From assembly GCF_000018105.1 (NCBI RefSeq), contig NC_009925.1:4890001-4922000 (forward strand): a DNA stretch of 32,000 nt, in the 5' to 3' direction. Numbering within the stretch: the first letter of the stretch is position 1; each line of letters begins with the position of its first letter. The position numbers and the translations under genes were made by a program. The DNA comes from Acaryochloris marina MBIC11017. GTDB lineage: Bacteria; Cyanobacteriota; Cyanobacteriia; Thermosynechococcales; Thermosynechococcaceae. Below, one piece after another: positions 14,928 through 32,000 of this stretch. The notes beneath the pieces were generated by a model that saw only the letters and a program-made list of their open reading frames with translations, had not been told where the DNA came from and searched no databases.

Positions 14928-17267
14928 TTAGTTCTTAATGCCGTTGGCAACAACACCCAGGATAGGAATCTGAGCAATTTCCAGCATACGGAGGCTTTCC
15001 TTCAACAGGCTTCTGGGAACGCTGCCTAGATGGGCAACTACCATTAAGCCATCCGTTTGAGGTGCAATAATCGTTGGATCTGCCAGGTTGAGGGGTGGGC
15101 AGTCATAGATAACTAAATCAAACTGTTCAGCGAACACACCCATCAACTTCTGCATCTTTTGAGACGCCAAGATGCGGGTTGGATCCGATGGCAACATCCC
15201 TGCTGTCAGTACAAAGAGGTTCTCGGTCCCAGGCAGTGGATGAATGGTGGACTGAAGATTACCTTCCGTCGCCATCAGGTCACTCAATCCAGGGCTGTTG
15301 GGTAAGTTGAGGACGCGGCTAAGGCTGGGAGCTCGTAAATCAGCATCGACTAACAAGACTCGTCTTCCCATAGCCGCTGCAGCCTGAGCTAAGTGCATCG
15401 AGGTGGTGGATTTTCCTTCCTGGGGTGAGCAGGATGAAATAACCAGGGAAGAAATGGGTAAGTCAGGATTGAGAAGGTGCAGTTGAGAGTAAAGGGAGCG
15501 AAAGGCTTCTAGGAACGGTGAATAGGAGTACTCCGAAGCTTTCTTGTTATTGGCAAAATTACTCAAGTTAGCCAAAGAGAATTGCTCGTTATTTAGCAGT
15601 GAAGGCTGTTCTTTTTGCTCAAGCAGTGCTAGTCCAACTTCACTCTTCAGGAAGTCACTTTCCGAAGATAGGAAGGGCGTTTCTTCCAGTTGCTTTTGCT
15701 GAGGAATGATACCTAGGATTGGACGCTTTAATTCGGCCCGGAGATCCTGTAGGGAGTGAATGGCATCATTGGTTCTATCCAAAAGAATCGCAATGCCTAC
15801 ACCGAGTAAAAGACCCAGCATTGTGCCTAAAGCCAAATCACGAGGCAGATTTGCATTGGTAATGGTTCTAACAGATGGCTTCCCTAATAACTCCCAGGGA
15901 ACCTCATTTCTAGCGGCGTTGATTAAGAGTTCTTCCCGCTTTTCTAGAAACTTACGATAAGTATCGTTGGCAATCTGAAGCTTCCGCTGCAGGTTTTCAT
16001 ACTGGCGGGTAATGGCAGGCAACTGCCCCATTTTCTGTTGTAGAGAGGATTGGGCTCTCAAAATTCCCTGTCGTTTTGCTTCCAGAACTTGAAGCTGTAC
16101 CGCAGCATCTACAAATTGTTGACTCATCCCCTTCCGCAGGGAGTTTTGGTAAGGCAGCGCTGCTGTGTCGGGAATCGTACTAGATAGATTCCGGCCAAGG
16201 CTATTGCGGGCTGCCTGGTTGATGAGAGGCAACAGCTTACTACGCTGTTCCCGTAAGTCAACCACTTCCGGGTGATTACTGGTGAGTTCTGCCGACCGAA
16301 TGGCGAGTTGAGACTCAATTTCCTGCAATTGCGCTCGCAACTTCTGATAGCTGGGAGACTCTGTCAGCACCGTGGCTGCTTCTGCACCAGATGGAGTCAA
16401 TTTTAGTTGCTGTTGTAGGGTTGTATATAACTGCCGAGTCTCCATAAGCTGAATTTGATTTTCAGCTAGCTGGCCTTGAATGGCACCGGCCTGAGAGGAA
16501 ACCTGACCACCAAACGTTGCCGGGTCCAGAAGCTGATACTGTTCACGGAACCGTTGCAGTAGCTGTTCAAATTGACGAACTTGACCTTCAGCTTTGGGAA
16601 GTTGCTGATCAACAAACTGAATCGCTCTTCTTAAGTTCGTTTGTCGCTCATTGACACTGTAATCGGTGTATTGCTGAGCTACTTCAGCGGCAATCACTTT
16701 CGCAGAGTCAGGATCGGCAGCATCAAGGGTCACTGACAATATCTTGGTGGGCGCCTTGTTTTCGGCAACTCGCTCAATTGTTAGGTTCTTAGCCAACTTT
16801 TTGTAGGACAAATTGGGATATTGAGGGCTCAATTTATCCGCAATGGGTTGAAGAATTTGAGGACTCAGAAGAATTTGGATCTGCGTAGGATAATCAAGAA
16901 CTGTCTGGGAAGCCTGAGCGTTTCCTAAGTCTTGCGCATTAACTGGGGTATTGTTACCACTAATCGCGGAAACAACTTCACTTTCAGCAGTAACAGGCTC
17001 AATCAAGAGTCGAAATTGACCTTGATAGGATGATGGTCGGGTACGGCTCCAGTATAGGGTTGAAACCGCAACAGCAGCCGTCACTAAAACGACCACTGGG
17101 AAGCGCCGACGAATAGCTCCAAACAGTTGGCCAAGATTTAGGCCTCCTTCTTCTTCTACACCAGCTTGAAAAGATTGAGGAAGGAGAGTGAGCGATGGGG
17201 TAGGAGTTTCTTTAACGGTCTCCAATCGCTGTAATCTCGTCATTTTTGAGTTAGGGCTAGGTTTCAT
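14928..17267 (-). CDS. polysaccharide co-polymerase / BY-kinase-like protein (GumC/Wzc/ExoP family)
   Basis: 779 aa with an N-terminal LNLGQLFGAIRRR + TM (Wzz-like) segment and a long Gln-rich coiled coil. A second TM follows. The C-terminal P-loop domain has Walker A SPQEGKST, A' LLVDADLR and B LVIYDCPP. A possible alternative start is M9 (17243). Confidence 0.85.
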   Translation of the reverse strand: MKPSPNSKMTRLQRLETVKETPTPSLTLLPQSFQAGVEEEGGLNLGQLFGAIRRRFPVVVLVTAAVAVSTLYWSRTRPSSYQGQFRLLIEPVTAESEVVSAISGNNTPVNAQDLGNAQASQTVLDYPTQIQILLSPQILQPIADKLSPQYPNLSYKKLAKNLTIERVAENKAPTKILSVTLDAADPDSAKVIAAEVAQQYTDYSVNERQTNLRRAIQFVDQQLPKAEGQVRQFEQLLQRFREQYQLLDPATFGGQVSSQAGAIQGQLAENQIQLMETRQLYTTLQQQLKLTPSGAEAATVLTESPSYQKLRAQLQEIESQLAIRSAELTSNHPEVVDLREQRSKLLPLINQAARNSLGRNLSSTIPDTAALPYQNSLRKGMSQQFVDAAVQLQVLEAKRQGILRAQSSLQQKMGQLPAITRQYENLQRKLQIANDTYRKFLEKREELLINAARNEVPWELLGKPSVRTITNANLPRDLALGTMLGLLLGVGIAILLDRTNDAIHSLQDLRAELKRPILGIIPQQKQLEETPFLSSESDFLKSEVGLALLEQKEQPSLLNNEQFSLANLSNFANNKKASEYSYSPFLEAFRSLYSQLHLLNPDLPISSLVISSCSPQEGKSTTSMHLAQAAAAMGRRVLLVDADLRAPSLSRVLNLPNSPGLSDLMATEGNLQSTIHPLPGTENLFVLTAGMLPSDPTRILASQKMQKLMGVFAEQFDLVIYDCPPLNLADPTIIAPQTDGLMVVAHLGSVPRSLLKESLRMLEIAQIPILGVVANGIKN

Positions 17268-17313
17268 CGCCTTTTAGGGGGGTAAGTAAAGAACTTAAAC
17301 TAATGCCAAACTT

Positions 17314-17481
17314 TCACATAGCCTGAGTTTCAAGTCAGACTGCAGATACCAAGGAATGAGGGATTAGTAAAATTTCACATATCTCTAGAATAACTTGTTT
17401 GTGAAGGGTTGCAATTGACTCAGATCACATGAACTTGGATACACGAGGCTAGTAGGCTGTTTTGAGGGAATGTAATCACAT
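17314..17481. promoter_or_regulatory. four phased copies of TCACAT upstream of the wzc-like gene (candidate regulator sites)
   Basis: TCACAT occurs at 17314, 17375, 17425 and 17476, with spacings of 61, 50 and 51 nt. Extended forms are TTTCACATA (two copies) and ATCACAT (two copies). The sites lie 47-214 nt upstream of the minus-strand start at 17267. Confidence 0.25.
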
Positions 17482-18223
17482 TATCTGTTAGCAATGGGTG
17501 CGTAAGAACAAACATTTAAGAAGCATATGAGGCAAAGGGAAAGCTGGATGTGACTTGAATCAACAGGGTTGCCATGAATTTAGTTTTCTTATGATTCAAA
17601 TAAAATTTCCTGCAATAAGTCTCACGAGACCCAAAGGCGTTTCTAGCTCTAGAATGAGCGAAAAATGCTCTATATATTGATAATATCTCCCTCATTTTCA
17701 ATATGGGTGCTGATCGTAAATCTATTGGCTAAAAATCGACCACTATCGGTTTCATTTTCTTAGCAGTAACAAACTCACAGCTATGTCGGTAGTATTAATT
17801 GATACAAAACTAATAATTATGGATGTATTCTTATTGTAGGCCTTTAGCATTAACAGAACGGTAAGATAAAGTCTGATTTAGTATGCATTAAGGATGTTTT
17901 TCACCTGTAATCTCTATATTTTTTATATTAAAAAAATAAGCAGGCAATAATTTTCCTCTTTTAGTAAATAAAAATTCTATAAAATAAAAACCTTTTATTT
18001 TATGTATTCCTCTAATCCTAAAATCCTGAATAATTATCTTTTTATATACAATCAGCTCATTTACTCATGATCAGCTAAACATATATTTCGGTTGAATTTA
18101 TCTCGTTCTAGTGAGAATATTTGAATTGTGTTTTTATATAAATAATTTTACTGATCTTTAAGTGTGTCCAGTTTTTTTATCTGATTAGCACTCAAAGATA
18201 AAAGCAAAGATAGAAGTTCTCAT

Positions 18224-18241
18224 AAGTATAGCAGTCGCCAT
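18224..18241. repeat. IS630 terminal inverted repeat (one end)
   Basis: AAGTATAGCAGTCGCCAT is the exact reverse complement of 19170-19187. Confidence 0.85.
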
Positions 18242-18246
18242 TCTAT

Positions 18247-19123
18247 TCAGGACACTAGATGTAGAACATGTTCCATTGCTTCTCTGAGAGATCCAAAATG
18301 TTCTAATTGGTGACGGATGCGACTTTTAATCCAAGACCAAGACCGCTCAATCTTGTTCAAGTCAGGGGAATAAGGCGGTAAATACCAAACCTCACATCCT
18401 GCTTTTTCCACTAATTCCTGTATTTGTCCTCCCTTGTGAAAAGTGGCATTATCTATCACCAGCTTCTGCCCAGGCTTGAGCACGGGTATCAAGCAACGCT
18501 CTAGCCAAAGTTCAAACACAGTCCGATTGCAAGCTCCTTCGATCGTGAACGGTGCCATCAACTGCTTTGCTCTCAACGCCGCAATCATATTGACTCGGCC
18601 GCTTCTACGCCCAGTCTTCAAAGCATAAACCCGCTCACCTTTGGGGCCATAAGCATAGTCATACTCGTCTCGATGATCCATGCCCGACTCATCCGCATAG
18701 ACGATATCGTCTGGGTCCACGGTACTCAGACGTTTGATGAACGCTGCCCGTTTGTGCTTATCTCGTTCTCGGTACCCATATGTTTTTTTTTCGAGTAAAT
18801 CCGATTTTCTGGAGGGCTCTTGAGATGGTTCGATCACTAATCTCTCCATCCCATAGTTGAGCCATCTGAGCTTGGGTTTTATGACGATGCTTGTGGGCAA
18901 ACGCTCGAAACTTGTCCCAGTCAGTGATTTTATGGCTATGGCCAGGATGATGGACTGGCTTGGGATGCAAATCACCCGTTTCCGCCTTGAGGTGTTGCCA
19001 TTGGTTAATGGTGTTACGACTGATATCGAACAGCTCACTAGCCTCAGAAGGGCGCATCCCATCTAGCTCAATCGCATCTATCACTTTGCAACGTAGGTCG
19101 TAACTATAAATTTTGGGCATCAC
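18247..19123 (-). CDS. IS630 family transposase in two overlapping frames (orfA 19123..18758 HTH part; orfB ..18247 DDE part)
   Basis: orfA ends ..ALQKIGFTRKKNIWVPRTR*. orfB continues ..LEKKTYGYRERDKHKRAAF.. and carries the catalytic residues VYADESG, LVIDNATFH and PYSPDLNKIER. The frames meet on an A9 run (T9 on + strand, 18783-18791). orfB is +1 relative to orfA, so loss of one A or slippage gives ..FTRKKTYGY... Confidence 0.85.
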
Positions 19124-19525: not shown

Positions 19526-21949
19526 TTAGGTGTTTACTAACTCGGTAGAGGCTGATTCTGCTGTGGGAGGTTGCCAAATAGCAGCCTTGATCAAAGCCCA
19601 AATCAAAGAAACATTATAAATTGCCCAGGCAGAGTTCAGAAGATGCAGGCCAGGGTTATCTAAAGTACCCATTGCATACCGAATTAGACTCCAGGAAATC
19701 CCTAATATAGTCAGAATGACAACCGTGAGTTGAGGGATTACAAGACCAACATACATCCCAGATTGACGTTGTTTAGGAGTGACTTGAAACTTAACGGGTC
19801 TACCCGTGAACACACTCCACACCGCCTTGATAAAGAGTGGAAAGAGTGCGATCGCAAATTGTTCTGCTCGCCATAGTTCCTCCTTCTTAATGCCCCAAGC
19901 AGCGGCCATAAAGGTAATCCGGTTGAGAATGAAAGCAGGCACAAAATGGATGGCAAACGCCAGGCCATAGGTTTGCACGGGTATCGCTTCAGTAAAAAAG
20001 TAAATCAGCGGACAGGCAATGAAAATCAGAGTAAAAAATCCAGAAAAGTAGCTATACATCGTCTGGAAGTATTGCAGCTGCTGCCAAACGGTGAGCCCTT
20101 TTTTGGTGAGAGGATTCTCTTGTAGCAAGACTTGAACGGTCCCTTGAGCCCATCTCAGTCGCTGTTTTAAAGTAGAGCTGAGGTCATCTGGTGCCAGGCC
20201 AACTGCTAATACTTCATGGTGATACACTGACTTCCACCCTGCAGCATGAAGTCGCATCGCCGTATTCATGTCTTCCGTAATACTGGCACTGGAGACCCCG
20301 CCCACCAGCTCAAACTCCTCTAAGCGTTTTTGATCTGCGATATATTCATCGGCGAAATTTTGCAGCCCCGTTGTGACTAACGCTTCGCGACGTAAAACCG
20401 CATTCGTGCCTGTATAAAAGGCTGAACTCATGCCATCCTTCCCTTGTTGAATCGGGCCATAGAACAGACGCGCTTGATGGCCAAAGGGGTCACCGGGAGG
20501 AAGGTTATAAAAGTCTTGTGGGGTTTGAACAAAGGCAATATCGCTGTCTTTGTATGCCCCATCCTGCATACTGTAATCAAAGAAATAGGGCAGGGCTCGC
20601 TGGAGAAAATGAGGTTTAGGAATATGGTCGGCATCTAGGGTCAAGATGAGATCGCCGGTTGTTTCTCCGGAAAACAAGGCATAGTTAATGTTGCCTGCTT
20701 TAGCATGATGGGGTTTCCCTTTAGGCTTGGGACGAGCAATATAGCGACTGCGCGCTAGGTCAATTAAGTCCTGTTCCTTTTGCTCAATGGTGCGTTGTAG
20801 GGTCTTGATTTCGGCCTTGAGATAGTCCGTCACCGAGCCATATTGATGATTGAGTAGACGAGTGCTCTGTTGCAGGCTATGGAGATAACCGGCTAACTGC
20901 TGAGTTTGATCTTGAATCCCAGTGGATTCTGGTGAAAAGAACTTGATGGCAATTAAACACTGACGTTGATCGGGAGTCGGATTGTAGCTGATAAAGTCAG
21001 TGAATTGGCTCATAATGCCAAAGCCTCTCCCTCCTTCAGCCATTAGATCCACATCTTCCAGGGATTTGAAGATTTTGTCGGGGTTGTCTAGACCAGGACC
21101 TCGGTCCCAAATCTGCAGAACTAAGACATTGCTGGAAATGTTTAATTCCAAATCAATCGGTGTGGTGGGGGGAAGATCCTTATGGGCATATTTCAAGACA
21201 TTATCCACACCCTCACCCAATACCGTTTGCAGCTCTAACCATGGTTTCATGGGAATGTGAGGTTGCTGAAGCTGGCTAAACCAGTCCAGGGCTACTTGGG
21301 CATTCTCTCGTTTGGTTTCTAGGGTCAACGTATGAGACTTTAATTTCTCCTCTCCAGCCGCAATTTCTGAGGCAAGACTTTGGAGATGCTGCAACTGTGC
21401 CTTGAGGTGTAGACGTTGCGAGTTGATCTCGTCTGCAGCGGCACGAAGCTGTGGTGTTTGCAAATCCCCAATACATAATTGCTCCGACATTTGCCGCATT
21501 TGAGGAGAATTTCCGTCATCCAGTACATAGACCTTCAACTTTGTCGCAGGATAGTCCATGTTTAGAGCTGCTTTCGCCGTTTCTCGAACCATCTCAACAG
21601 GTTCGTTGTAGCAGGTGATAAACACATCAACACTCGGCCATTCAGCTTCTGGCAATGCGGGGCGCATTTGTCTGAGGGGTTTGACATCTCGGACAATGGG
21701 CCGCCAGAGACCGATAAAGAACATGACGCCGCCGATATAGCTATAAATTTCCGCGAGTAATAGCGGAAGGGCTAACCACAGGGCATTGAAGTTAACCGAA
21801 TTGAGGATCCGCCACTGCAAATACCAGCCCCCAAAAATGAGGTTTATGATCACCAGAAACCGAAAGAGTAGGGTCCTATCCTTTAGTCTGATGCGGATAT
21901 TGCCAGAAAAAGCAGGGGTATTTTCAATAATGGGGACGGCATTAGTCAT
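19526..21949 (-). CDS. processive family-2 glycosyltransferase (cellulose-synthase-like beta-glycan synthase) with an embedded GHKL ATPase-like insert
   Basis: 807 aa with 2 N-terminal and about 6 C-terminal TM helices. GT2 motifs are CYNEP, VLDDG (aa 142-146), HAKAGNIN (415-422), LDADH, FVQTPQDF, SITEDM and QRLRWAQG. No PilZ-like C-terminus is present. Confidence 0.9.
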   Translation of the reverse strand: MTNAVPIIENTPAFSGNIRIRLKDRTLLFRFLVIINLIFGGWYLQWRILNSVNFNALWLALPLLLAEIYSYIGGVMFFIGLWRPIVRDVKPLRQMRPALPEAEWPSVDVFITCYNEPVEMVRETAKAALNMDYPATKLKVYVLDDGNSPQMRQMSEQLCIGDLQTPQLRAAADEINSQRLHLKAQLQHLQSLASEIAAGEEKLKSHTLTLETKRENAQVALDWFSQLQQPHIPMKPWLELQTVLGEGVDNVLKYAHKDLPPTTPIDLELNISSNVLVLQIWDRGPGLDNPDKIFKSLEDVDLMAEGGRGFGIMSQFTDFISYNPTPDQRQCLIAIKFFSPESTGIQDQTQQLAGYLHSLQQSTRLLNHQYGSVTDYLKAEIKTLQRTIEQKEQDLIDLARSRYIARPKPKGKPHHAKAGNINYALFSGETTGDLILTLDADHIPKPHFLQRALPYFFDYSMQDGAYKDSDIAFVQTPQDFYNLPPGDPFGHQARLFYGPIQQGKDGMSSAFYTGTNAVLRREALVTTGLQNFADEYIADQKRLEEFELVGGVSSASITEDMNTAMRLHAAGWKSVYHHEVLAVGLAPDDLSSTLKQRLRWAQGTVQVLLQENPLTKKGLTVWQQLQYFQTMYSYFSGFFTLIFIACPLIYFFTEAIPVQTYGLAFAIHFVPAFILNRITFMAAAWGIKKEELWRAEQFAIALFPLFIKAVWSVFTGRPVKFQVTPKQRQSGMYVGLVIPQLTVVILTILGISWSLIRYAMGTLDNPGLHLLNSAWAIYNVSLIWALIKAAIWQPPTAESASTELVNT
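20714..21478 (-). other. ~250-aa insert between the DDG and HAKAGN motifs: coiled coil, GHKL (RsbW/SpoIIAB-like HATPase) core, coiled coil
   Basis: N-box EGVDNVLKYAH (21182-21214), G1 box WDRGPGLD (about 21092-21109) and G2 box GGRGFGI (about 21017-21034). Heptad-like Gln/Leu-rich segments flank the core (aa ~165-225 and ~345-400). From memory, BcsA-type synthases have only a few tens of residues between these GT2 motifs. Confidence 0.65.
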
Positions 21950-22175: not shown

Positions 22176-25100
22176 TTATTTATTATTGTTTTTGGACAAA
22201 GCGCTGTTGGGAGCCCCCCAATAGGTGCCGGTCGAATCAGTAATGAGCTGCAATTTGGGTTTGGGGGTTGGCGGTAGGCCTGTACCAATTTCTTCGTTGG
22301 CTACGGCTTTCCACCAGGGGGAGCTACGGGAGATATCCGCAACGAGTAACGGTTGGCGATCGCGCAAGCGATACAAGATAGACTGCAACACAATACTGTT
22401 GGTGGAGCCACTAAAACCAGGATTAGATTGGCCCGATTGCTCATTCACCCCTTCGTAAAAACCCAATACGGGGTTATACAGGTCTAAAGCGGACTGATAT
22501 AGCTCTTGAGCATAGTCATTGTCAGGGAAAATCGCATGGTAGGCGAAAGCGGCAGCACTACTGATCACGCGTTGCTCAGACTTTAAGGCTTGGTCAGCGG
22601 ATGAGGCCGCCCAAGCTTTTTTATCTTTGCTGATCAAGCTGCTATGGATCACGTAGGGGGCTTTCGTCGTTAAGGTGGTTCCAGCTGCCGTCAATACCCC
22701 TTCACGGTTATATCGTTCTTGTTGAGCTTGCAACATGGGTAGAACTAATTGCCGCATTTGGGGATCTAGGCCCAGTTCTAAGCCGTAAACCATAAACGGA
22801 TTGCTAACGATCTGTTGATCCTTATCAGACTTCTTGCGAGGTCGGTCTCGCTCAATCGGAATTTGGAACCCTTCTAATTCGGCTGTTTTGTAATTCCCGC
22901 CTACCGCCGCTTCTGTTACATCAAAGCCCCAAAGCTGGAAGCCTCGGGCTGCATATTCTTCATAGCCCAAGCGAGAATCTGGTTTGACTCGGATTAAACG
23001 ACGACCATTGCTGTCAGCTTCGACAAAGGCACTGTGGATACGACCGTCTCGAACAACCCGTAAGAACGACCAGTCCAACACAATCTCATCAATAATGTCG
23101 GTATAGCCCTTATGACACCCCTTGAGATTGTGGAGCGCCAACAAGAAACGGCCCACGTCTAAACCGGACCAGCCGATCCCTTCAGGAGAAGGGTTCATGC
23201 CGTAATCTACCGCCTCAAGGGTGCGAATATCATAGTTGCGATGGGGCAATTCACCACCATGTAACGGTAACCGTTTTATTGCACCTAAAAATAAGCGAAC
23301 TCGCTGATCAAATTCTTCGATGGTAATCACATCCAGGGATTCAGCCGCTTGAAGCGCTGCGATATAGTCTCCCATCCCCCAAAGGGTTGCAACTTTCATG
23401 TCGCTGCGATCGCTCACCAGTCCCGTACTGGATTCATAATTCGCTTCAAAGTATTTCCAGGCTGCTTTGGCATACCGCTTCTCAGCTAGGTGAGGTCGGC
23501 GAGTTAAGTCCTGGCAGACCGAAGAATCTTTGGGTTTTCGTCCCGACAAGATGGGAGCCACAGCCACCTGAACGGGCTGATTCGGCGGTTCCGGCTGTTC
23601 TATTTTGCCGATGGGTTCTGGTGAAGGAGCTGGGGCTGGGGTTGATGCGACAACTGGAGCTGGGACTACAGTAGGTGCAAGAGTCGGCAAGGATGTCGTC
23701 GTTTGACCAGGGGAGAATTGGGGACTAGCACCATCCCCTTCAATAAATTGGCAGCAAACCACTAGGTTCGGATCAATTGCGCTAGGTTGAGATACCGTTT
23801 GCTGAGTGGGAGACTGAGCAACGACAGGGCTAGGTGCTGGCGCAGCACTTGGGCCAGGCGTTGGGGCTGGAGCGGGTGTCGGTGCTGGCGCAGGTGCCGG
23901 GGCGGGTGCTGGAGCTGGAGCGGGTGCCGGAGTTGGGGCGGGTGCCGGAGCTGGGACGGGTGCCGGAGTTGGAGCAGGTGCCGGGGCTGGGGCGGGTGCT
24001 GGAGCTGGAGCGGGTGCCGGAGTTGGGGCGGGTGCAGGAGCTGGAGTCGGGGCAGCAGCTACATTATCTGGAGCTGGATAACCTTCTGCAACGATTGTAT
24101 TTTGGGGACTTCCAGTAGACGCATTAACACCATTCCCACCGATCAACGGTCGATATCCCCTGGCCTTGTAATAAAGGATTTCCATGATCAGTCCGTTGGT
24201 ATTTCCGGTCAGAGCTTGATTAGGCTGATTGGTTTCTTCATACAATCCTGCATAAAAGCCGCCACCATCCGGGCTCATCAACCCCTTCGCGACTTCAAAC
24301 AATTGATCTGCATAGGGTTCATCGGGAAAGATATACCGCCAGCCAAACGCAGCTTTGGTACTAATACTGCGCTTGTCAGGATGAAGCTCATTTTTTTCGG
24401 TAATCGTAGCCCAAGCCACGCCATTGGAAAAAACAGTGTTGTAAAGGAAGTAAGGCGGGCCATCAATATTGTCTTCTGTCACAGCTGTAAGCTGTCCAGT
24501 TGCTTGATATCGACGTTTTTGAACTTCTAGAACCCGAGCGGCATAGTCTCGCATTTGGTCGCCCAGAAAACCAAATTCAATCCCATCCAAAATATAAGAT
24601 TCACTCACCACATAGTTATTGGCATTTGTTTCTTGATAGGCCCGAGTATCTACAGGAATCTGCACCCCATAGATTTCGACCATTTGGAAGGGTTCAAAGG
24701 ATAGTGCTTTGGGGACAGAGAACCCCCATAACTCATACCCCCGAGCAGCATATTCTTCATAGCCTAGGCGGCCTTCTTGTACAGGTAGGGTTTGGCCATC
24801 TTCCAGTACCGTTGCCCCAAACATATTGCCATCTTCAATGGAACGTTCAATCGCCCAGCGATCCACAATAGCCTGTAACCAGTCGGCATACTGAGGATGG
24901 CAGGTACGGAGAACATGGAAAGCCGCCAGAATTCGACCAATATCAAGAGCCGACCAGCCAATCCCTCGCTCAATGGGATTGTTACCGTAATCCACCATGT
25001 CGCCATTGGCAGCGTTATAGACCTTATTCGGCAGGCTGTCTTCAAATAGTTTCAATCCGGCTAAGGACGTTAAAAACTTATTCAGTTTCTGATCCAATTC

Positions 25101-26828
25101 CTCTTGCGGGATCAGGTTCATCCACCGGGCTGCATTCAGAGCCATCAGGTAGTTGCCCATATCCCATAAGGTGCCGGAAGGATATCCTCCCGACGAATTG
25201 GTAAACCCAGTTGCTTCTTGATAGTTATTGACAAAATATTGCCAAGCAGTGCGAGCGTAGGTTTCTTCCTCTGGTGTTAAAGGATTGGTAATGCCCCCAC
25301 AGGAATTATCGCCAGGTGGCGGAGGGGGAGCAGCAATAGGTGCCGGAGATGGAGCTGGGGTAGCCGCAGGTGTGGGAGAGGGGGCTGGTGCCGGGGCTGG
25401 AGCCGGAGATGGAGCTGGGGCTGGAGCCGGGGCTGGGGCTTGGGCTGATGCAGGTGCAGGAAACTCTTCCATGACCACGGTCGTTTCAGGGTTTCCAGTC
25501 GAAGCACTAACGCCATTCCCCCCAATCAGTGGCCGATTGCCTCTGGCCTTGTAATAGAGGATTTCCATAATCAGCCCGTTTGTGTTTCCGGTTAAGGATT
25601 TATTGGGCTGTTGGGTCTCCTCATACATACCAGCAAAAAAACCGCCACCATCCGGACTCATTAATCCCTTGGCAACCTCAAAAAGCTGTTGAGCGTAGGG
25701 ATCATCTGGGAAAATATAGCGCCAACCAAATGCTGCCTTCGTGCTAATACTGCGTTTATCAGGGTGGAGTTCGTTCTTTTCCGTGATGGTGGCCCAGGCG
25801 ACACCATTAGAGAAAACAGTGTTGTAGAGGAAGTAGGGCGGGCCATCAATGTTATCCTCAGTCACTGCTGTCAATTGGCCTGTGGCCTGATAGCGTCGCT
25901 TCTGAACTTCAAAGACCCGGGCGGCAAAGTCCCGCATTTGATCGCCTAAAAAACCAAATTCAATGCCATCTAAGATGTAGGACTCACTGACAACATAGTT
26001 ATTCGCATTGGTGTCTTGATAATTACGCGTATCTACAGGAATTTGCACCCCATAGATCTCGACCATTTTGTAAGGTTCAAAGGACAATGCCTTCGGAACC
26101 TGAAAATTCCAAAGTTCGTATCCTCTGGATGCATACTCCTCATACCCGAGGCGGCCTTCCTGCACTGGTAAGGTTTGACCATCTTCAAGGACTGTAGCCC
26201 CATACATATAGCCATCTTGAACGGACCGATCCACCGCCCAGCGATCAATGATGGATTTTAGCCACTCCGCATATTGAGGATGGCAGGTGCGCAAGACATG
26301 AAACGCTGCCAGAATACGGCCAATATCTAGGGCGGACCAACCAATCCCTCGCTCAATAGGGTTGTTGCCATAATCCACCATGGCCCCATCGGCTGCGTTG
26401 TACACCTTATTCGGCAAGCTATCTTCAAATAGCGTTAACCCAGCCAGAGATGATAGGAATTTATTTAGTTTTTGATCGAACTCTTCTTGGGGAATCAGGT
26501 TCATCCATCGGGCCGCATTGAGGGCCATCAGGTAGTTTCCCATATCCCACAAGGTGCCTGAAGGGTACCCCCCGGTAGAGTTGGTAAAGCCTGTCGCTTC
26601 TTGATAGTTATTCAGAAAGTATTGCCAAGCCGTGCGGGCGTAGGTTTCCTCCTCTGGTGTCAGAGGATTTGTAATCGCACCACATTCATTGGCTTCTTGG
26701 GCATAGGCAACCTTCTCTGTAGTAAAAGGTAGCCACAGAGGAGGAGAAAGAATGCCTAATGCCAACCAGGCAACTAGTCTAACTATTGGCAGAGGACGAC
26801 GTCGCTTCATCAGATAGGATGGCCCCAA
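22176..26828 (-). CDS. secreted 1550-aa protein with three tandem copies of a ~390-aa alpha-helical domain (I believe DUF3131-like; possible glycan-binding/glycoside-hydrolase-like fold), joined by Pro-Ala linkers
   Basis: Sec-type signal (MKRRRPLPIVRLVAWLALGIL...AYA-QE; the likely true start is M7 at 26810). Domain copies lie at about 25501-26684, 24121-25301 and 22350-23516. They share the blocks AW.YF..NY...TG, TLW(D/G), LP.(K/R)(V/N)Y, VDYG, GIGWS..D(I/V)GR, EGRLGYEEYA.RG..LW, LTA, S(T/S)(K/A)AAF and GFY.G.(Y/N)E. Confidence 0.85.
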   Translation of the reverse strand: MGPSYLMKRRRPLPIVRLVAWLALGILSPPLWLPFTTEKVAYAQEANECGAITNPLTPEEETYARTAWQYFLNNYQEATGFTNSTGGYPSGTLWDMGNYLMALNAARWMNLIPQEEFDQKLNKFLSSLAGLTLFEDSLPNKVYNAADGAMVDYGNNPIERGIGWSALDIGRILAAFHVLRTCHPQYAEWLKSIIDRWAVDRSVQDGYMYGATVLEDGQTLPVQEGRLGYEEYASRGYELWNFQVPKALSFEPYKMVEIYGVQIPVDTRNYQDTNANNYVVSESYILDGIEFGFLGDQMRDFAARVFEVQKRRYQATGQLTAVTEDNIDGPPYFLYNTVFSNGVAWATITEKNELHPDKRSISTKAAFGWRYIFPDDPYAQQLFEVAKGLMSPDGGGFFAGMYEETQQPNKSLTGNTNGLIMEILYYKARGNRPLIGGNGVSASTGNPETTVVMEEFPAPASAQAPAPAPAPAPSPAPAPAPAPSPTPAATPAPSPAPIAAPPPPPGDNSCGGITNPLTPEEETYARTAWQYFVNNYQEATGFTNSSGGYPSGTLWDMGNYLMALNAARWMNLIPQEELDQKLNKFLTSLAGLKLFEDSLPNKVYNAANGDMVDYGNNPIERGIGWSALDIGRILAAFHVLRTCHPQYADWLQAIVDRWAIERSIEDGNMFGATVLEDGQTLPVQEGRLGYEEYAARGYELWGFSVPKALSFEPFQMVEIYGVQIPVDTRAYQETNANNYVVSESYILDGIEFGFLGDQMRDYAARVLEVQKRRYQATGQLTAVTEDNIDGPPYFLYNTVFSNGVAWATITEKNELHPDKRSISTKAAFGWRYIFPDEPYADQLFEVAKGLMSPDGGGFYAGLYEETNQPNQALTGNTNGLIMEILYYKARGYRPLIGGNGVNASTGSPQNTIVAEGYPAPDNVAAAPTPAPAPAPTPAPAPAPAPAPAPAPAPTPAPVPAPAPAPTPAPAPAPAPAPAPAPAPTPAPAPTPGPSAAPAPSPVVAQSPTQQTVSQPSAIDPNLVVCCQFIEGDGASPQFSPGQTTTSLPTLAPTVVPAPVVASTPAPAPSPEPIGKIEQPEPPNQPVQVAVAPILSGRKPKDSSVCQDLTRRPHLAEKRYAKAAWKYFEANYESSTGLVSDRSDMKVATLWGMGDYIAALQAAESLDVITIEEFDQRVRLFLGAIKRLPLHGGELPHRNYDIRTLEAVDYGMNPSPEGIGWSGLDVGRFLLALHNLKGCHKGYTDIIDEIVLDWSFLRVVRDGRIHSAFVEADSNGRRLIRVKPDSRLGYEEYAARGFQLWGFDVTEAAVGGNYKTAELEGFQIPIERDRPRKKSDKDQQIVSNPFMVYGLELGLDPQMRQLVLPMLQAQQERYNREGVLTAAGTTLTTKAPYVIHSSLISKDKKAWAASSADQALKSEQRVISSAAAFAYHAIFPDNDYAQELYQSALDLYNPVLGFYEGVNEQSGQSNPGFSGSTNSIVLQSILYRLRDRQPLLVADISRSSPWWKAVANEEIGTGLPPTPKPKLQLITDSTGTYWGAPNSALSKNNNK
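23826..24075 (-). repeat. (Pro-Ala/Pro-Thr)n linker-coding low-complexity repeat with an exact 45-bp direct repeat at 90-bp period
   Basis: GGCGGGTGCTGGAGCTGGAGCGGGTGCCGGAGTTGGGGCGGGTGC occurs at 23901-23945 and again at 23991-24035. It encodes ..APAPAPTPAPAPAPAPAP... Confidence 0.9.
24121..26684 (-). repeat. intragenic tandem duplication, period 1383 nt (461 codons), two domain-plus-linker units
   Basis: By eye, copy A (25501-26684) and copy B (24121-25301) encode peptides identical at roughly nine of ten positions. The DNA differs at many synonymous sites, for example Leu CTG vs TTA and Glu GAG vs GAA within NPLTPEEETYA. Confidence 0.9.
25313..25460 (-). repeat. (Pro-Ala)n linker-coding low-complexity repeat between domain copies A and B
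   Basis: Encodes PAPASAQAPAPAPAPAPSPAPAPAPAPSPTPAATPAPSPAPIAAPPPPPG. The DNA is GGNGCN-type hexamer repeats. Confidence 0.9.
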
Positions 26829-26892: not shown

Positions 26893-28383
26893 TTAAGTTT
26901 CCAGCTCAGAAACACCAGCCCAAACGGCTAAAGGTTTGCCAACCTTTTTGAATAATAAGCACTCTAAGATAATGCCATTATTATTAGCTGTCAATACGGC
27001 ATTTGGCTCATCTAAGGTCTCATAAAAACCACTGTACCAACCTTTTTTAGAACCGACTTTTTCTTGCACAAAAGAAAACAGCTTTTTGGTGTAATCCGTG
27101 TTGTAAAGAACATGCCAACCAATCGCCGCTTTCGTACTAACAAAGCGAAGATGATTGTAGTTTTCTCCGGTGTCACTAATGGTTGCCCAGGGTTTACCGT
27201 TTACATACAAGGTGTTGTAAACAAAATAGGGTTCCCGATCTAAATTATCTTCCGTGATAGCGGTCAATTGCTTCGTCGCTTTATAACGAGCTTCTTGAGC
27301 CGCTAACATCCGATCGGCATAGGCCTTAGGCAGGGCTTTAAAGCCTGTCTCAATGCCATCCAAGAAGAATGGCTCACTTAATACGTAATTATTCGCTTCC
27401 GAATTTTCGCGATCGCGCACATCAAATGGAATGCTGTGGCCATAGAGTTCAACGAAGGCCGATTTGTTGTCATAATCTAAAGCCTTATCAACATTGAGTC
27501 CCCAGAGTTTCAATCCATAGGCTGCATAATCTTCGTACCCTAAGCGTCCTTCCTGGTTGTATTGCTCTTGACCATCCTTGATACTGGTGCCGAACATTTG
27601 GCCATCTTTCGTCAACCGCTTGACATCCCAGGCTTTCCACACTGCCGTAGTTTGGGGTTCAAACTCGGGATATTTAGCAGCAATAATTTTTAACCATAGG
27701 GCAATTCGTCCCAGGTCAATTGCTGACCAGCCAATCTCTTCCCGTTTGTCTAGAGAACCATAATTTACCGGCATAAGGTTTTGGGAATTGTAGACCTTAT
27801 TGGGAAGCTCTCCCTTATACAATTCCAGTTTGGCAAGAGTGGTCAACATCTTGCTCATGGTTGCTTTGAATTCCTTTTCTGAAATCAAGTCCAATTCTTT
27901 GGCACTGACCACAGCCGCCATTGCTGCGCTTTGATCCCAAAGGGTCACCGATTGAAATTGATCAACCGAATTAGCCAACCCTGTGTCTGGATTAATATTG
28001 GTCTCAAAATAGCTCCAAGCCTTCTTGGCGACCTTTAGCTCGGCAGGGGACAGTTTACCGACATGTGCTGGGATATAAGGTGTGGTTGTTTTTGCAATTT
28101 CTTGTTTGCTCACCCGATCACCTGGAAATTTAATTGAGCGGGAATCAGGTTTTTCATTCTTGGCCTTGGGTTTCGCCTTGGCGGTGTCAGAGGTCTTTGA
28201 ACTAGGAGCGGTAGCAGTGGTCGTAGGGCCAGACTCTTGAGTCGATTCTTTTTGGGAAAGATTGCCCGATAACATTTCTAAACCTGCGATCGCAGCGACG
28301 GCTGTCACTACCCCCCCTAAATAGGTGAGAAAAGCAAGTTTTTTAGGTGGCATTTCGAAATTAGAATTCATGACTGCTCCCAC
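26893..28383 (-). CDS. membrane-anchored protein with a single copy of the same ~390-aa (DUF3131-like) domain
   Basis: 496 aa with one N-terminal TM (LAFLTYLGGVVTAVAAIAGL) and a Ser/Thr/Lys-rich spacer. The domain then shares AW.YF, TLWD, LPNKVY, EIGWSAIDLGR, EGRLGYEDYAAYG.KLWG, LTAITEDN, STKAA and WYSGFYE with the neighbouring gene. The likely start is M5 (28371). Confidence 0.85.
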   Translation of the reverse strand: MGAVMNSNFEMPPKKLAFLTYLGGVVTAVAAIAGLEMLSGNLSQKESTQESGPTTTATAPSSKTSDTAKAKPKAKNEKPDSRSIKFPGDRVSKQEIAKTTTPYIPAHVGKLSPAELKVAKKAWSYFETNINPDTGLANSVDQFQSVTLWDQSAAMAAVVSAKELDLISEKEFKATMSKMLTTLAKLELYKGELPNKVYNSQNLMPVNYGSLDKREEIGWSAIDLGRIALWLKIIAAKYPEFEPQTTAVWKAWDVKRLTKDGQMFGTSIKDGQEQYNQEGRLGYEDYAAYGLKLWGLNVDKALDYDNKSAFVELYGHSIPFDVRDRENSEANNYVLSEPFFLDGIETGFKALPKAYADRMLAAQEARYKATKQLTAITEDNLDREPYFVYNTLYVNGKPWATISDTGENYNHLRFVSTKAAIGWHVLYNTDYTKKLFSFVQEKVGSKKGWYSGFYETLDEPNAVLTANNNGIILECLLFKKVGKPLAVWAGVSELET

Positions 28384-28584: not shown

Positions 28585-30591
28585 TTAAAAATCGATTCTC
28601 AACTGCCCAGAAAAGATATGGCTATTACTGGCCCCAGATCCACTTGAAATGATGTTGGTGAGAACATAACCAAAATCAAGCTCTACATTATCGGCCAAAG
28701 ACGCTGTACATTTCGCTTGTAATCCTCGACCGGTACTTTTGCCCCCATTCACGACTTGGTTGCCAATAGAGGCAGCAAATTGGCAGGTTAAGGGGTCAAA
28801 AATTTTGCCTTTCCAACCCACTTCAGCGTTGTAGAGTAAAAAACTGAGGGGAGAAAAATAGCCACTCTCTGATTCTAGATCTTCCGCAAAGTTCCAGGTG
28901 AATACGTTTGCAGCGACAGAAAAAGGTCCGATTTTTCGTTCTAATCGGCTGAAAGACTGGATTTCTTGGTTGCCATCATTGAAAAATCCAGCTTGGAACA
29001 GCCCAAAGAAGGTGGTTTTACTATCAATTTGCCAAAATACGCTTGGACGAATCCGCCAATAGCTAATTTCATTCTCTAAAGTCGTGGTGTTGAATTTATA
29101 AGGACCATGCTCGACTTCTCCAGAAACCAAGACTTGTCCAAAAAGGGATGTTTTCGCTCCCACCTTAAATGTAGGCTGAGGATCTAAACGATTAAATACT
29201 TCAGCACCCGCCGCTACATTGATGGAAACCTCTCCAACTTCAGTCTCCCATCCTAAAATCAGCGGAATATTTTTGACGGGTTCTTGCCCTTCCTGGCTAT
29301 AGGTGTTGACCCCTGTTGTAAAGGTGACAACATCTCCATTCCGAACTCGAAAAGTTATAATTTCTTCGATTTTTAAGTTTTCTTTGCCAAACTCATCGAA
29401 ATCTAGCTTGAAGTCAGTTGTCGAACTCTCTAAGACAATAAAAGACACCTGTGGATCATCAGCGGCTCCAATCGGGGTTAATTCAGTAGGGAACCGATCT
29501 GGAGGTGTTTTTTGAGGCGGTTGAAGAGGGAGGTCTGGAGGTACCGTAGGCGATTGAGCGGTCGTTTGTGCAGGAACCTTAGGTGTGCCTTGCACTAGCA
29601 CAGGCTGAGAGGTAGGTGAAATATTTTGCTGCCGGGCGGGTGAAGGTAGAGATCGAAAACGAGGGGTAGATGAAGGGGGCGAGCTGTCCCGAAAAGCTTC
29701 TGGAACAGTCGGTTGGGACCTTTGTTGCCGCGTTGGGGGCAGACCTGATGGACGGACAGCAGGGCTAGAATGAGGTGCTTGATGAGCAGGCGTTGTCGCA
29801 CCCCCTGTCGCAGAATCCTTGGGAGAAGTAGCAGAGGGTATGTTTCGAGGAACGGGACCTGAAGGACGGACCGTTGGACTATGGATAGGGGCACTATCAA
29901 CGGGAGTTACCGCCCCTCCCTCAAAAGAACCTGGGAGTGAGGGATGCTTTGGGAGATCTGTTGGTCGCGGAGCTGGACCTGAAGGTCGGGCCGCCGGACT
30001 ATGGGCTGGTGTTGCTGCACCGCCTTGAAAATCATCGGGTGAGGAGCGAAGAGGAATATGGGTTGGCCGAAGAGCTGGACCTGAAGGACGAGCTGCTGGA
30101 CTATTGGTAGGAGGTCTAGGGGTTTCCGCACCTCCGTGAAAATTATCTGATGGGGGCAGTGGTGAGGCTATTGGCCGAGGAGCTGGACCTGAAGGACGGG
30201 CCGCTGGACTAATAATTAGTAAGGGTGAATTAGGTGGAACTGGGGACGGAGAATATGGCTGAGAATTCTCCACTAGCGGAACTCCATCCGCCTCTGCTGG
30301 AATATTCACATCAGTTGGAAATGAAGCTCCGCCTTGGGGGCCTGCTCCAGATGGGCTGGTCGGGGTAATGGCTGGTGAGGAGGGGAAAGGTTGGGGAGAA
30401 GCCTGGGGACGTGCAGGCTTTTTCTGAGAACGGTCAGGTTGAACAATAGGCTGGAGCAAGCCGGGATTCAACTCATAGGGGCCTGCAACTAACATCGGCT
30501 GTTGAATCACAGGCGAGGATAACTCCTGAGCCTTTGGAGTATTGAGGTCAGTTTGACAGCCTAAGCATAGCGTTGCCAACACGGAAAACAT
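28585..30591 (-). CDS. putative outer-membrane lipoprotein: Pro-rich repeat stalk plus C-terminal beta-barrel (BcsC-C-terminal-like porin, tentative)
   Basis: 668 aa. The N-terminus MFSVLATLCLGC has a lipobox-like LGC. Residues ~25-375 are Pro/Ser/Ala-rich with five 34-40-aa repeats (SPAARPSGPAPRP...GGA.TP). Residues ~380-668 show an alternating beta-strand pattern, a GYFSP motif I associate with BcsC-type barrels, and the terminal ..FSGQLRIDF (C-terminal Phe). Confidence 0.75.
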   Translation of the reverse strand: MFSVLATLCLGCQTDLNTPKAQELSSPVIQQPMLVAGPYELNPGLLQPIVQPDRSQKKPARPQASPQPFPSSPAITPTSPSGAGPQGGASFPTDVNIPAEADGVPLVENSQPYSPSPVPPNSPLLIISPAARPSGPAPRPIASPLPPSDNFHGGAETPRPPTNSPAARPSGPALRPTHIPLRSSPDDFQGGAATPAHSPAARPSGPAPRPTDLPKHPSLPGSFEGGAVTPVDSAPIHSPTVRPSGPVPRNIPSATSPKDSATGGATTPAHQAPHSSPAVRPSGLPPTRQQRSQPTVPEAFRDSSPPSSTPRFRSLPSPARQQNISPTSQPVLVQGTPKVPAQTTAQSPTVPPDLPLQPPQKTPPDRFPTELTPIGAADDPQVSFIVLESSTTDFKLDFDEFGKENLKIEEIITFRVRNGDVVTFTTGVNTYSQEGQEPVKNIPLILGWETEVGEVSINVAAGAEVFNRLDPQPTFKVGAKTSLFGQVLVSGEVEHGPYKFNTTTLENEISYWRIRPSVFWQIDSKTTFFGLFQAGFFNDGNQEIQSFSRLERKIGPFSVAANVFTWNFAEDLESESGYFSPLSFLLYNAEVGWKGKIFDPLTCQFAASIGNQVVNGGKSTGRGLQAKCTASLADNVELDFGYVLTNIISSGSGASNSHIFSGQLRIDF
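29740..30220 (-). repeat. in-frame tandem repeats (102-120 nt units) coding the Pro-rich stalk
   Basis: The core GGACCTGAAGG(A/T)CG.. occurs at 29855, 29975, 30077 and 30185, with spacings of 120, 102 and 108 nt. A fifth degenerate unit lies near 29740. Confidence 0.85.
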
Positions 30592-30708: not shown

Positions 30709-32000
30709 TCATTTTTCTGTCTGTTTAGAGGAAATAGGTCGCCATCCAGGTAATACACTTTGCCGTTGACGCGCCACGACTAGGACATCATCATCGACAT
30801 TCTTAGTAATTGTGGAGCCTGCCGCCACGGTAACATTTGCCCCTAAGGTAATCGGAGCCACTAAGACGCTGTTTGCACCTGTTTTGGTGCGATCGCCAAT
30901 CTGAGTTGGATGTTTATTCACCCCGTCATAATTGGCAGTAATGGTTCCTGCACCAATATTGACCTGGGTTCCTAAAGTGGCATCCCCTAGATAAGACAGA
31001 TGGGCGACGTTGGTGCGATCTCCAATGGTCGTTTTTTTCATTTCAACGAAATTACCGACCCGGCATTTCTCACCAATCTGCACATTCCCTCGTAGATGCG
31101 TATAAGGCCCTATCCGGGAGTTGTCGCCCACTCGGCTGTCCGAGATAACAGAATAAAGAACCTGCACATTGGTGCCAATATGGCTATTCTCAATCAAACT
31201 CCCAGGACCGATACGGCTACCGGTATCAATTTTGGTATCGCCCCGTAGGTGGGTTTGAGGCTCGATAATGACATCGGTCCCCAATTCAACGGTTTCATCT
31301 ATGGTAATGCTGTCTGGATCCATAATTGTCACGCCAGCAACCAGCCAATCATCCTTAATCCGATCTTGCAAAATCTTGTAGGCGGTGGCTAATTGTTTGC
31401 GATCGTTAATGCCTAGAATTTCTTGATAATCATCGACATCCAGAACCATAACTGGGTCTAAGTAGTTAACTGCATCGGTCAGATAATATTCTTTTTGATC
31501 ATTTTCAGCTTTCAGGTTTGGTAATACTTTGGCTAAAGCCGACCAGCGAAAACAATAGACCCCTGCATTGATGCGTTGATTTTGACGTTGGGCAGGGGTA
31601 CAGTCTCGATCTTCAATAATTTCTTGCAAATGCATTTGAGCATCGCAAAAGACCCGACCATAACCTTTGGGATTGGGCAATTGGGCTGTCAAAATGGTCG
31701 CTGCATTCTGATGCTCTTGATGGGTTGCCAACATTTTTTGCAACGTCCCAGGTCGGAGTAAGGGGACATCGCCATTGAGGACGAGCAAGTCTCCTTCAAA
31801 GCCTTCCATCACAGGCAGTACTTGCTGGACGGCGTGGCCTGTGCCCAATTGCTCCGTTTGTTCCACAAATTCTAAGTTCGGCCAGCCTTGCATTTCTGTC
31901 CGCACTTGATCAGCGGAATAGCCCACAATCACAATCTGACGGGATGGAGAAAGGTTTTGGGTGCTGCTTAATACTCGCTCAATCAGGCTCTTACCCCCTA
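30709..32000 (-). CDS. glmU: bifunctional UDP-N-acetylglucosamine pyrophosphorylase / glucosamine-1-phosphate N-acetyltransferase, 5' end beyond the window
   Basis: The frame stays open to the window edge; my translation upstream of the track start reads ..[32 protein letters not shown]. The nucleotidyltransferase half and the C-terminal left-handed beta-helix hexapeptide repeats are present ([35 protein letters not shown]). Confidence 0.9.

Follow-up and report, generated by a model that had tools for sequence, protein, structure and literature searches.

What does a long exported protein built from repeated DUF3131 domains do beside a cellulose synthase? The question is raised by a 32,000-nucleotide stretch of Acaryochloris marina MBIC11017 (NC_009925.1, 4,890,001–4,922,000 of the forward strand; hereafter the window), in which an open reading frame (ORF) at 22176–26828 on the minus strand encodes a three-domain DUF3131 protein and the gene downstream of it encodes a CesA-type processive synthase of glycosyltransferase family 2 (GT2). 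We propose that the protein is part of a periplasmic assembly that processes or handles the glucan made by this synthase. We hold this reading with slightly better than even confidence, and catalysis, substrate and complex are the parts of it that we infer.

Pfam family PF11329 (DUF3131) matches the protein three times at full length, from profile positions 1–2 to 366–367 of 367 and far above the gathering cut-off of 20.3 bits. Domain 1 (amino acids 63–430; nucleotides 25539–26642, minus strand, as for every feature of this protein) scores 561 bits, domain 2 (amino acids 524–891; 24156–25259) 557 bits and domain 3 (amino acids 1118–1489; 22362–23477) 484 bits. The original prediction, made from the letters of the window, had tentatively named DUF3131, and the name was right; the fourth copy that it placed in the gene immediately upstream is also there (26893–28383, minus strand; 525 bits), in a 496-amino-acid protein that combines a single DUF3131 domain with a hydrophobic anchor at the N terminus and a linker rich in Ser, Thr and Lys. 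We refer to this upstream domain as type A, to domains 1 and 2 as types B and B′, and to domain 3 as type C, which gives the three-domain protein the layout B-B′-C. The prediction had described three beads of one domain: they do belong to one family, but they are not equivalent, two being of type B and one a remodelled type C. Domains 1 and 2 share 88–90% protein identity (90.5% over 400 ungapped codons), domain 3 is 37–38% identical to either, and the upstream-gene domain is 42–44% identical to domains 1 and 2 and 31% identical to domain 3. Nonsynonymous divergence between domains 1 and 2 is low (dN 0.057) and their synonymous sites are saturated (proportion of synonymous differences, pS, 0.75), so both have long been kept under strong purifying selection. 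The same saturation makes for a surprisingly old duplication, given that a B-B arrangement of this kind is seen only among Acaryochloris relatives.

The ORF runs for 1550 amino acids from a TTG, and its true start is likely to be the ATG at codon 7 (nucleotide 26810). From there the N terminus reads MKRRRPLPIVRLVAWLALGILSPPLWLPFTTEKVAYA followed by QEANEC, which looks like a Sec signal peptide (amino acids 7–43; 26700–26810) with an AxA-type site, AYA/QE, immediately before QE; this was read off the sequence by eye rather than by a predictor, and agrees with the Sec signal of the original prediction. A lipoprotein reading of the cysteine behind the signal peptide was ruled out, as ECGA lies downstream of the AxA site and a lipobox is absent. 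The cysteine motifs said to precede each domain were found at C49, C510 and C1105, and each has a partner at a spacing of exactly 133 residues (C49/C182, C510/C643 and C1105/C1238). The pair formed by the N-terminal cysteine and C138 (domain-1 numbering, to which 44 is added for full-protein numbering) occurs in 85 of 85 type B domains, a pattern that would fit a disulfide and an extracytoplasmic location.

Two Pro/Ala-rich linkers separate the domains, as had been claimed, with lengths of about 66 and 200 amino acids; the second had been put at about 185. Linker 1 (amino acids 444–509; 25302–25499) has a combined Pro and Ala fraction of 0.64, and linker 2 (amino acids 905–1104; 23517–24116), which is rich in Pro, Ala, Thr and Ser, one of 0.52. 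The DNA of both spacers consists of short GC-rich tandem repeats of 6–30 nucleotides. Linker 2 also holds a conserved island, NLVVCCQFIEGDGASP (amino acids 1019–1034; 23731–23778), that is not Pro/Ala-rich and has two adjacent cysteines; it is present as well in the orthologue of the Acaryochloris metagenome-assembled genome (MAG) L002.

AlphaFold models predict helix-rich (α/α)6 barrels for domain 1 (built with 33 homologues; mean predicted local distance difference test (pLDDT) score of 91.7) and domain 3 (83.1). In Foldseek comparisons with the PDB, the first 19 matches of domain 1 and the first 20 of domain 3 belong exclusively to the β-1,2-glucanase clan of glycoside hydrolase (GH) families, also called the SGL clan or clan GH-S, with E values of 1e-10 to 3e-6 and template-modelling (TM) scores of about 0.55–0.65. 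These matches are to GH144 (5GZH/5GZK, 3EU8, 4QT9, 4GL3, 5Z06 and 8XUL), GH192 (8XUJ), GH194 (8XUK), GH162 (6IMU/6IMW) and GH189, and generic (α/α)6 proteins such as epimerases and GH8/BcsZ rank below the clan (E ≥ 1e-5). The modelled barrels of domains 1 and 3 thus appear superposable on GH144, GH162 and GH189, which bears out the earlier suggestion of an (α/α)-barrel fold like that of β-glucan-active glycoside hydrolases.

At the level of sequence the relationship is confined to the N-terminal part. A phmmer search of PDB sequences with domain 1 gave no match. A profile of 126 diverse DUF3131 members, the set on which all conservation counts below are based, reached 8wy1 (the Cgs cyclisation domain) with E 1.7e-6 and Cgs with 5e-4, both over only about 100 N-terminal residues. 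When the family was aligned by hhalign with the clan sequences in the supplement of PMC12102758, the probabilities were 98.3% for GH193, 94.5% for GH189 and 45% for GH144, each over the first ~150 residues only, and GH192, GH162 and Group 4 gave nothing. Conversely, SkSGL (GH193) and TiCGS (GH189) match PF11329 only at positions 2–140 (22–29 bits); the C-terminal half of each is covered instead by PF10091 (Glycoamylase), which the window domains do not match even at E ≤ 10. Similarity to GH193 and GH189 therefore falls short of the whole catalytic domain, and GH144 membership, which calls for PF10091 together with a match to CpSGL, finds no PF10091 match and an N-terminal hhalign match alone. 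A search for complete Cgs homologues with the 102-amino-acid fragment of 8wy1 returned short fragments only, in which PF11329 could be seen to label the start of the Cgs cyclisation domain. NCBI ‘DUF3131’ proteins of GH193 had already been tied to the β-1,2-glucanase clan (PMC12102758). Because the window family matches PF11329 from end to end, never matches PF10091 and resembles the characterised families in its N-terminal part only, we conclude that it is ‘true’ DUF3131, a separate family of the clan rather than a member of GH144, GH189 or GH193; it comprises about 1,258 clusters at 50% identity (E ≤ 1e-3). The family is thus not GH144 or GH162 itself, and the nearest families by sequence are GH193 and GH189.

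Gene order ties this family to the synthase. Across 80 related cyanobacterial genome loci, the closest of which are Acaryochloris MAGs with 94–97% protein identity, we found a conserved order of a BcsC-like barrel gene, a type A DUF3131 gene, B, C, often a further type D, and finally a CesA-type GT2. In 72 of the 80 loci the GT2 is found within 10 kb, on the same strand in 69 of them; of the eight loci without a full GT2 match, six are truncated where the contig stops, the GT2 of another is split, and L058 lacks the gene. Types B and C share a single reading frame of about 950 amino acids in nearly all loci, and six loci have B-C-D fusions. The B-B-C layout is restricted to the window and two Acaryochloris MAGs, a third Acaryochloris MAG having plain B-C, and L085 encodes a B-B-C-D protein of 1820 amino acids; Leptolyngbya PCC 7376 has B-C-D and a separate B. 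Second B copies have arisen or been retained in further lineages (L085 and L081). Three non-cyanobacterial clusters, L084 (a deltaproteobacterial MAG), L087 and L088 (an acidobacterial MAG), carry three or four tandem DUF3131 genes each, and in two of them (L084 and L087) a GT2 adjoins these genes. Tandem sets outside the cyanobacteria indicate that the multi-paralogue set is old and was fused in cyanobacteria. The original prediction had staked itself on the domain accompanying GT2 synthases in other genomes, and it survived that comparison.

The same synteny bears on whether the protein might instead be a secreted, catabolic multi-domain glycosidase that scavenges foreign glucans and sits beside the synthase by chance. 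Many characterised clan members are indeed catabolic (PMC12102758), and tandem catalytic domains on Pro-rich linkers are generally known from secreted polysaccharide degraders. Yet the association with a GT2 extends over many cyanobacterial genera and beyond them, sugar transporters, phosphorylases and β-glucosidases do not recur in the cluster, and the type A paralogue is membrane-anchored, all of which makes scavenging highly improbable in our view.

The synthase itself (19526–21949, minus strand; 807 amino acids) carries the GT2 motifs DDG144, DAD439, TED558 and QRLRW596. It scores 326 bits against TIGR03030 (BcsA/CesA), matches Pfam Cellulose_synt with E 1.9e-34 and reaches 30 bits against OpgH/MdoH; in its motifs and in its TIGR03030 and Cellulose_synt matches it is the processive GT2 of a Bcs-like system. 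Its identity with ACB00100.1 of Synechococcus PCC 7002, which by accession numbering would be SYNPCC7002_A2118, the CesA of Zhao et al., is 52% across the full length; the CesA of Picosynechococcus PCC 11901 falls in the same 90%-identity cluster as that of PCC 7002. In PCC 11901 the genes run in the order receiver-PAS-SpoIIE, a 925-amino-acid DUF3131 protein (B-C), a 364-amino-acid barrel protein that is 40% identical to the barrel of the window, GT2-HATPase and STAS. Anabaena offers a parallel, alr3756 (‘unknown protein’) being listed in an operon with alr3757 (CesA) (PMC12267927). When cesA is knocked out in PCC 7002, the cells lose a cellulase-sensitive layer, labelled by a cellulose-binding domain, that separates peptidoglycan from outer membrane; growth of the mutant is slow at low salinity only (PMC4851311).

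Every structural neighbour of known activity works on β-1,2-glucan (PMC12102758, PMC10834661), and GH193 and GH189 are nearest in sequence, so one can imagine a system resembling that for osmoregulated periplasmic glucans (OPGs), in which the GT2 makes β-1,2-glucan, alone or beside another product, and the DUF3131 domains set its chain length or cyclise it, as in OpgH with OpgG/OpgD or in Cgs. Poor growth at low salinity only is an OPG-like phenotype (PMC4851311). However, the GT2 fits BcsA/CesA models far better than OpgH/MdoH, the lost layer of PCC 7002 behaves as cellulose towards cellulase and the binding domain (PMC4851311), and genes for GH9 endo-β-1,4-glucanases stand beside some clusters. 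On balance we consider a β-1,2-glucan system quite unlikely. The GH9 genes (CelD_N plus Glyco_hydro_9) flank the DUF3131/GT2 cluster in L011, L013, L015 and L085–L087, for example at 2464–6527 of L085 and 1–2477 of L087, with a GH2 enzyme alongside in L085–L087. GH9 is the family of plant KORRIGAN. Their position argues for a β-1,4 product and suggests that the role of DUF3131 is something other than simple, BcsZ-like trimming.

Whether the domains could be enzymes was approached through their conserved residues. D124, R127, E180, R182, Y185, E186, D222, R224, E246, Q265, R268, E280, W301, Y334 and N373 (domain-1 numbering) each occur in 90% or more of the 126 members, and domain 1 has the full acidic set (D168, E224, E230, D266, E282, E290, E324 and D325 in full-protein numbering). 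Types A, B and D hold every listed conserved residue across the 80 loci, with the sole exception of an Asp at E238 in type D. In the significant part of the hhalign alignment, D124 (D168 of the protein), within WSALDIGR, is paired with the Asp of the SkSGL motif SSVDNGW and with that of the TiCGS motif STVDSGN; the position is Asp in 121 of the 126 members and in all four window domains. For GH144 and GH192–194, this position has been argued to hold the likeliest general base (PMC12102758); it is acidic in CpSGL (E142), EeSGL1 (D149) and SkSGL (D160), as it is in DUF3131 (D168).

For the residues that define the clan, a Glu (XcSGL E239, CpSGL E211, TiCGS E1356), a Tyr (XcSGL Y367) and a Phe (XcSGL F286), conserved DUF3131 candidates lie outside the significant alignment: E224 or E230/E231 for the Glu and Y335 for the Tyr, with none clear for the Phe. 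Candidates for the general-acid Glu sit in VQEGRLGYEEY, where E180 resembles that of S-E-x-R in GH189, GH192 and GH193, and E186/E187 resemble that of G-Y-N-E in GH144. An ungapped motif, VQK followed after 15 residues by E, sets E280 (E324 of the protein) on the GH189 nucleophile TiCGS E1442, the Glu to which that enzyme owes its retaining transglycosylation. Of the 126 members, 113 have Glu here, and type C has Thr. The pairing is also the best local hhalign match for this segment, but that match is not significant (E 0.14–0.3). Equivalence of E324 with the GH189 nucleophile, which would favour a β-1,2-glucan system, is a lead only.

Type C departs from this pattern in a regular way. Its fixed changes are E280T (80/80 loci), D281T (72/80), D222Q (65/80), E238N (74/80), Y291H (74/80) and N371S (67/80), and it retains D124, R127, E186, E246, R268, W301 and Y334. 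Domain 3 of the window has E280T, D281T, D222E, R224D, E238N and Y291H (domain-1 numbering). Such remodelling is not present in the non-cyanobacterial paralogues. The type C pattern is conserved remodelling, not decay.

Another reading is that none of the DUF3131 domains is catalytic, and that they form a lectin-like barrel scaffold or conduit from synthase to outer-membrane barrel, standing in for BcsB and the TPR region of BcsC. Both of these are absent from the cluster and a BcsC-like barrel is present; the four paralogues are kept across phyla and repeatedly fused, as expected of subunits of one assembly; and the linkers are long and extended. Group 4 of the clan (PgSGL4) was inactive on all tested substrates (PMC12102758), and in some clusters a separate GH9 is available. 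The conservation pattern stands against this: five acidic residues together with Arg, Tyr and Trp are near-invariant in the 126 members, as in an active site, the candidate general-base Asp is among the conserved positions, and the contrast with type C suggests that A, B and D retain something that C has lost. We therefore regard a purely structural role for all the domains as unlikely.

Between DDG and DAD the GT2 contains an RsbW/SpoIIAB-like HATPase_c_2 insert (20966–21304, minus strand; Pfam E 2.5e-13), at the site where plant CesA has its plant-conserved region (P-CR). In 62–66 of the 80 loci the cluster encodes STAS proteins as well as a phosphatase of the receiver-(PAS)-SpoIIE type, and Nostoc-type clusters encode the kinase separately (alr3760, for example). 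Together, HATPase, STAS and SpoIIE look like a partner-switching module on the synthase that would replace PilZ and cyclic di-GMP; a comparable switch on another cyanobacterial glycosyltransferase, not CesA, was published in 2026 (PMC13555669). Although STAS and PP2C genes are present in most related loci, none was found in the window, and the STAS gene that trails the synthase in most relatives is missing. Searches of the window proteins against Pfam and NCBIfam found no BcsB, no PilZ domain and no TPR scaffold, and in these respects the locus is not Bcs-like.

A BcsC-type porin is nonetheless indicated upstream of the type A gene, where a 668-amino-acid protein (28585–30591, minus strand) has a Pro-rich region of about 380 residues with four SPxxRPSG repeats, and then a C-terminal β-barrel of about 290 residues; TPR repeats are absent. 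PF05420 (BCSC_C) matches 15 of 16 orthologues (best E 2e-5), weakly but consistently, and the top two PDB profile matches of the barrel are BcsC, 6tzk and 9b8a. The short N terminus of this protein, MFSVLATLCLGC, might be a lipoprotein-type signal.

We propose on this basis an envelope-spanning system. At the inner membrane, the CesA-type GT2 would be controlled by its built-in RsbW-like kinase domain instead of PilZ. The Sec-exported, fused B-(B′)-C protein of about 1500 amino acids would then lie in the periplasm as three (α/α)6 barrels on flexible Pro/Ala linkers, in company with the membrane-anchored type A, with type D in many genomes and with the BcsC-like barrel in the outer membrane. 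Types A, B and D may act on the nascent β-glucan as glycosidases or transglycosylases, trimming, remodelling or releasing it; we propose them as the active members because they have the complete conserved acidic and aromatic set, to which the Asp aligned with the putative general base of GH144, GH192, GH193 and GH194 belongs. Type C may hold the glucan chain instead of cutting it, or have another activity, as its pocket shows the same remodelling in almost every cyanobacterium examined. With such linkers the beads could span or sample the periplasm and the peptidoglycan that lie between synthase and porin, and the fusions may reflect physical assembly. The possible ‘periplasm-spanning track’ of the original prediction gains indirect support from the recurrent paralogue fusions and from the gene for a BcsC-like outer-membrane barrel.

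Several points weigh against this proposal. Full-length DUF3131 is a biochemically uncharacterised family, and all characterised clan members act on β-1,2-glucan, none on β-1,4-glucan. By hhalign, the C-terminal two-thirds of the family can be aligned with no characterised clan member, and C-terminal sub-alignments against GH144, GH189, GH192 and GH193 found nothing significant for the catalytic Glu, Tyr and Phe. In the clusters that have a GH9 enzyme, simple trimming of the BcsZ kind may already be provided by that enzyme. Localisation is predicted from the signal peptide as read and from the conserved cysteine pair, and it is gene fusions only that suggest a physical association of the paralogues.

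A bolder version of the proposal is that the four paralogues A–D, which cyanobacteria would have fused into proteins of the bead-on-a-string kind, form a hetero-oligomer replacing BcsB and the BcsC TPR region, with the nascent glucan remodelled by retaining transglycosylation through E324 and type C holding the chain, and that the whole represents a new, partner-switched type of synthase-dependent secretion in cyanobacteria, Deltaproteobacteria and possibly Acidobacteriota. We put this forward as a tentative idea that is doubtful as a whole. If it were true, the ‘cellulose’ of the periplasmic layer would not be plain cellulose but a glucan that had been processed, whether by branching, by cross-linking or into mixed linkages.

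Just downstream of the synthase lies an IS630-family transposase (18247–19123, minus strand) in two overlapping ORFs, a helix-turn-helix part and a DDE_3 part; the element is not at the same position in the Acaryochloris MAG L002. About 2 kb past it, a Wzc-type chain-length determinant and tyrosine autokinase (14928–17267, minus strand; TIGR01007, 125 bits) belongs to a different, Wzy-type polysaccharide pathway, with an AT-rich gap (GC 0.37) between the two at 17268–18246. On the other side, the gene immediately upstream of the cluster is glmU (30709–31932, also on the minus strand), for UDP-GlcNAc synthesis; among the 80 loci it was detected beside the cluster only in the Acaryochloris MAGs L002 and L003, so its position here is probably incidental. 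Scans of 19–32 kb for promoters and terminators gave results at the level of shuffled sequence, and a megablast of the cluster against plasmids gave no match.

The Pfam family PF11329 and the fold clan are already known. In the literature that we searched we did not find full-length DUF3131 described as a separate branch of the clan, nor the four-paralogue structure with its remodelled type C, nor the near-obligate tie to a CesA-type synthase and a BcsC-like barrel; ‘DUF3131’ had no mention there in work on cyanobacteria. Plant cellulose synthases are regarded as descendants of cyanobacterial CesA, whose partners, secretion route and regulation are named as open questions in reviews (PMC12430437). 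The locus provides candidates for each: four glucanase-fold paralogues as partners, a BcsC-like porin for secretion and a kinase/STAS/PP2C switch for regulation. The β-1,2-glucanase clan, for its part, gains a large branch, and the genes around it suggest a substrate or role unlike that of any characterised member. Picosynechococcus and Anabaena, both genetically tractable, carry DUF3131/CesA loci.

Among known systems, GH193 and GH189 share with the window domains the (α/α)6 barrel, an N-terminal W-x-Y-F helix, an N-x-G-x-Y-L motif and the Asp of S-x-x-D-x-G, and SkSGL and Brucella Cgs are, like the window family, labelled ‘DUF3131 domain-containing’ by NCBI. Unlike the window domains, which PF11329 covers completely, both families match PF10091 in the C-terminal half, and the window domains lack the long helical insert that GH189 has. 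GH144 (CpSGL, 5GZH/5GZK; the Bacteroides ‘putative glucoamylases’ 3EU8 and 4QT9) provides the best structural matches (Foldseek E ~1e-10, TM ~0.6) and a similar size of about 400 amino acids, but sequence identity is 13–15%, the 45% hhalign match covers the N-terminal part only, and alignment did not place its catalytic Glu.

With respect to genetic organisation, parallels are found in the endoglucanases BcsZ (GH8), KORRIGAN (GH9) and XcsC, each an extracytoplasmic glycosidase-fold protein genetically coupled to a processive β-glucan synthase. BcsZ is also an (α/α)6 barrel, to which Foldseek gives weak matches (E ~1e-4). DUF3131, however, belongs to another family and clan, comes as three to five paralogous domains rather than as one enzyme, and in some clusters occurs with a GH9 besides. 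Two reviews (PMC12430437 and PMC8892547) and PMC4851311 treat the synthase only, leaving unnamed the DUF3131 partners, the BcsC-like barrel and the kinase nature of the insert. The cyanobacterial ‘cellulose synthase with PCR domain’ (SYNPCC7002_A2118, alr3757 and Npun_F1469) has the same GT2 architecture as the synthase of the window.

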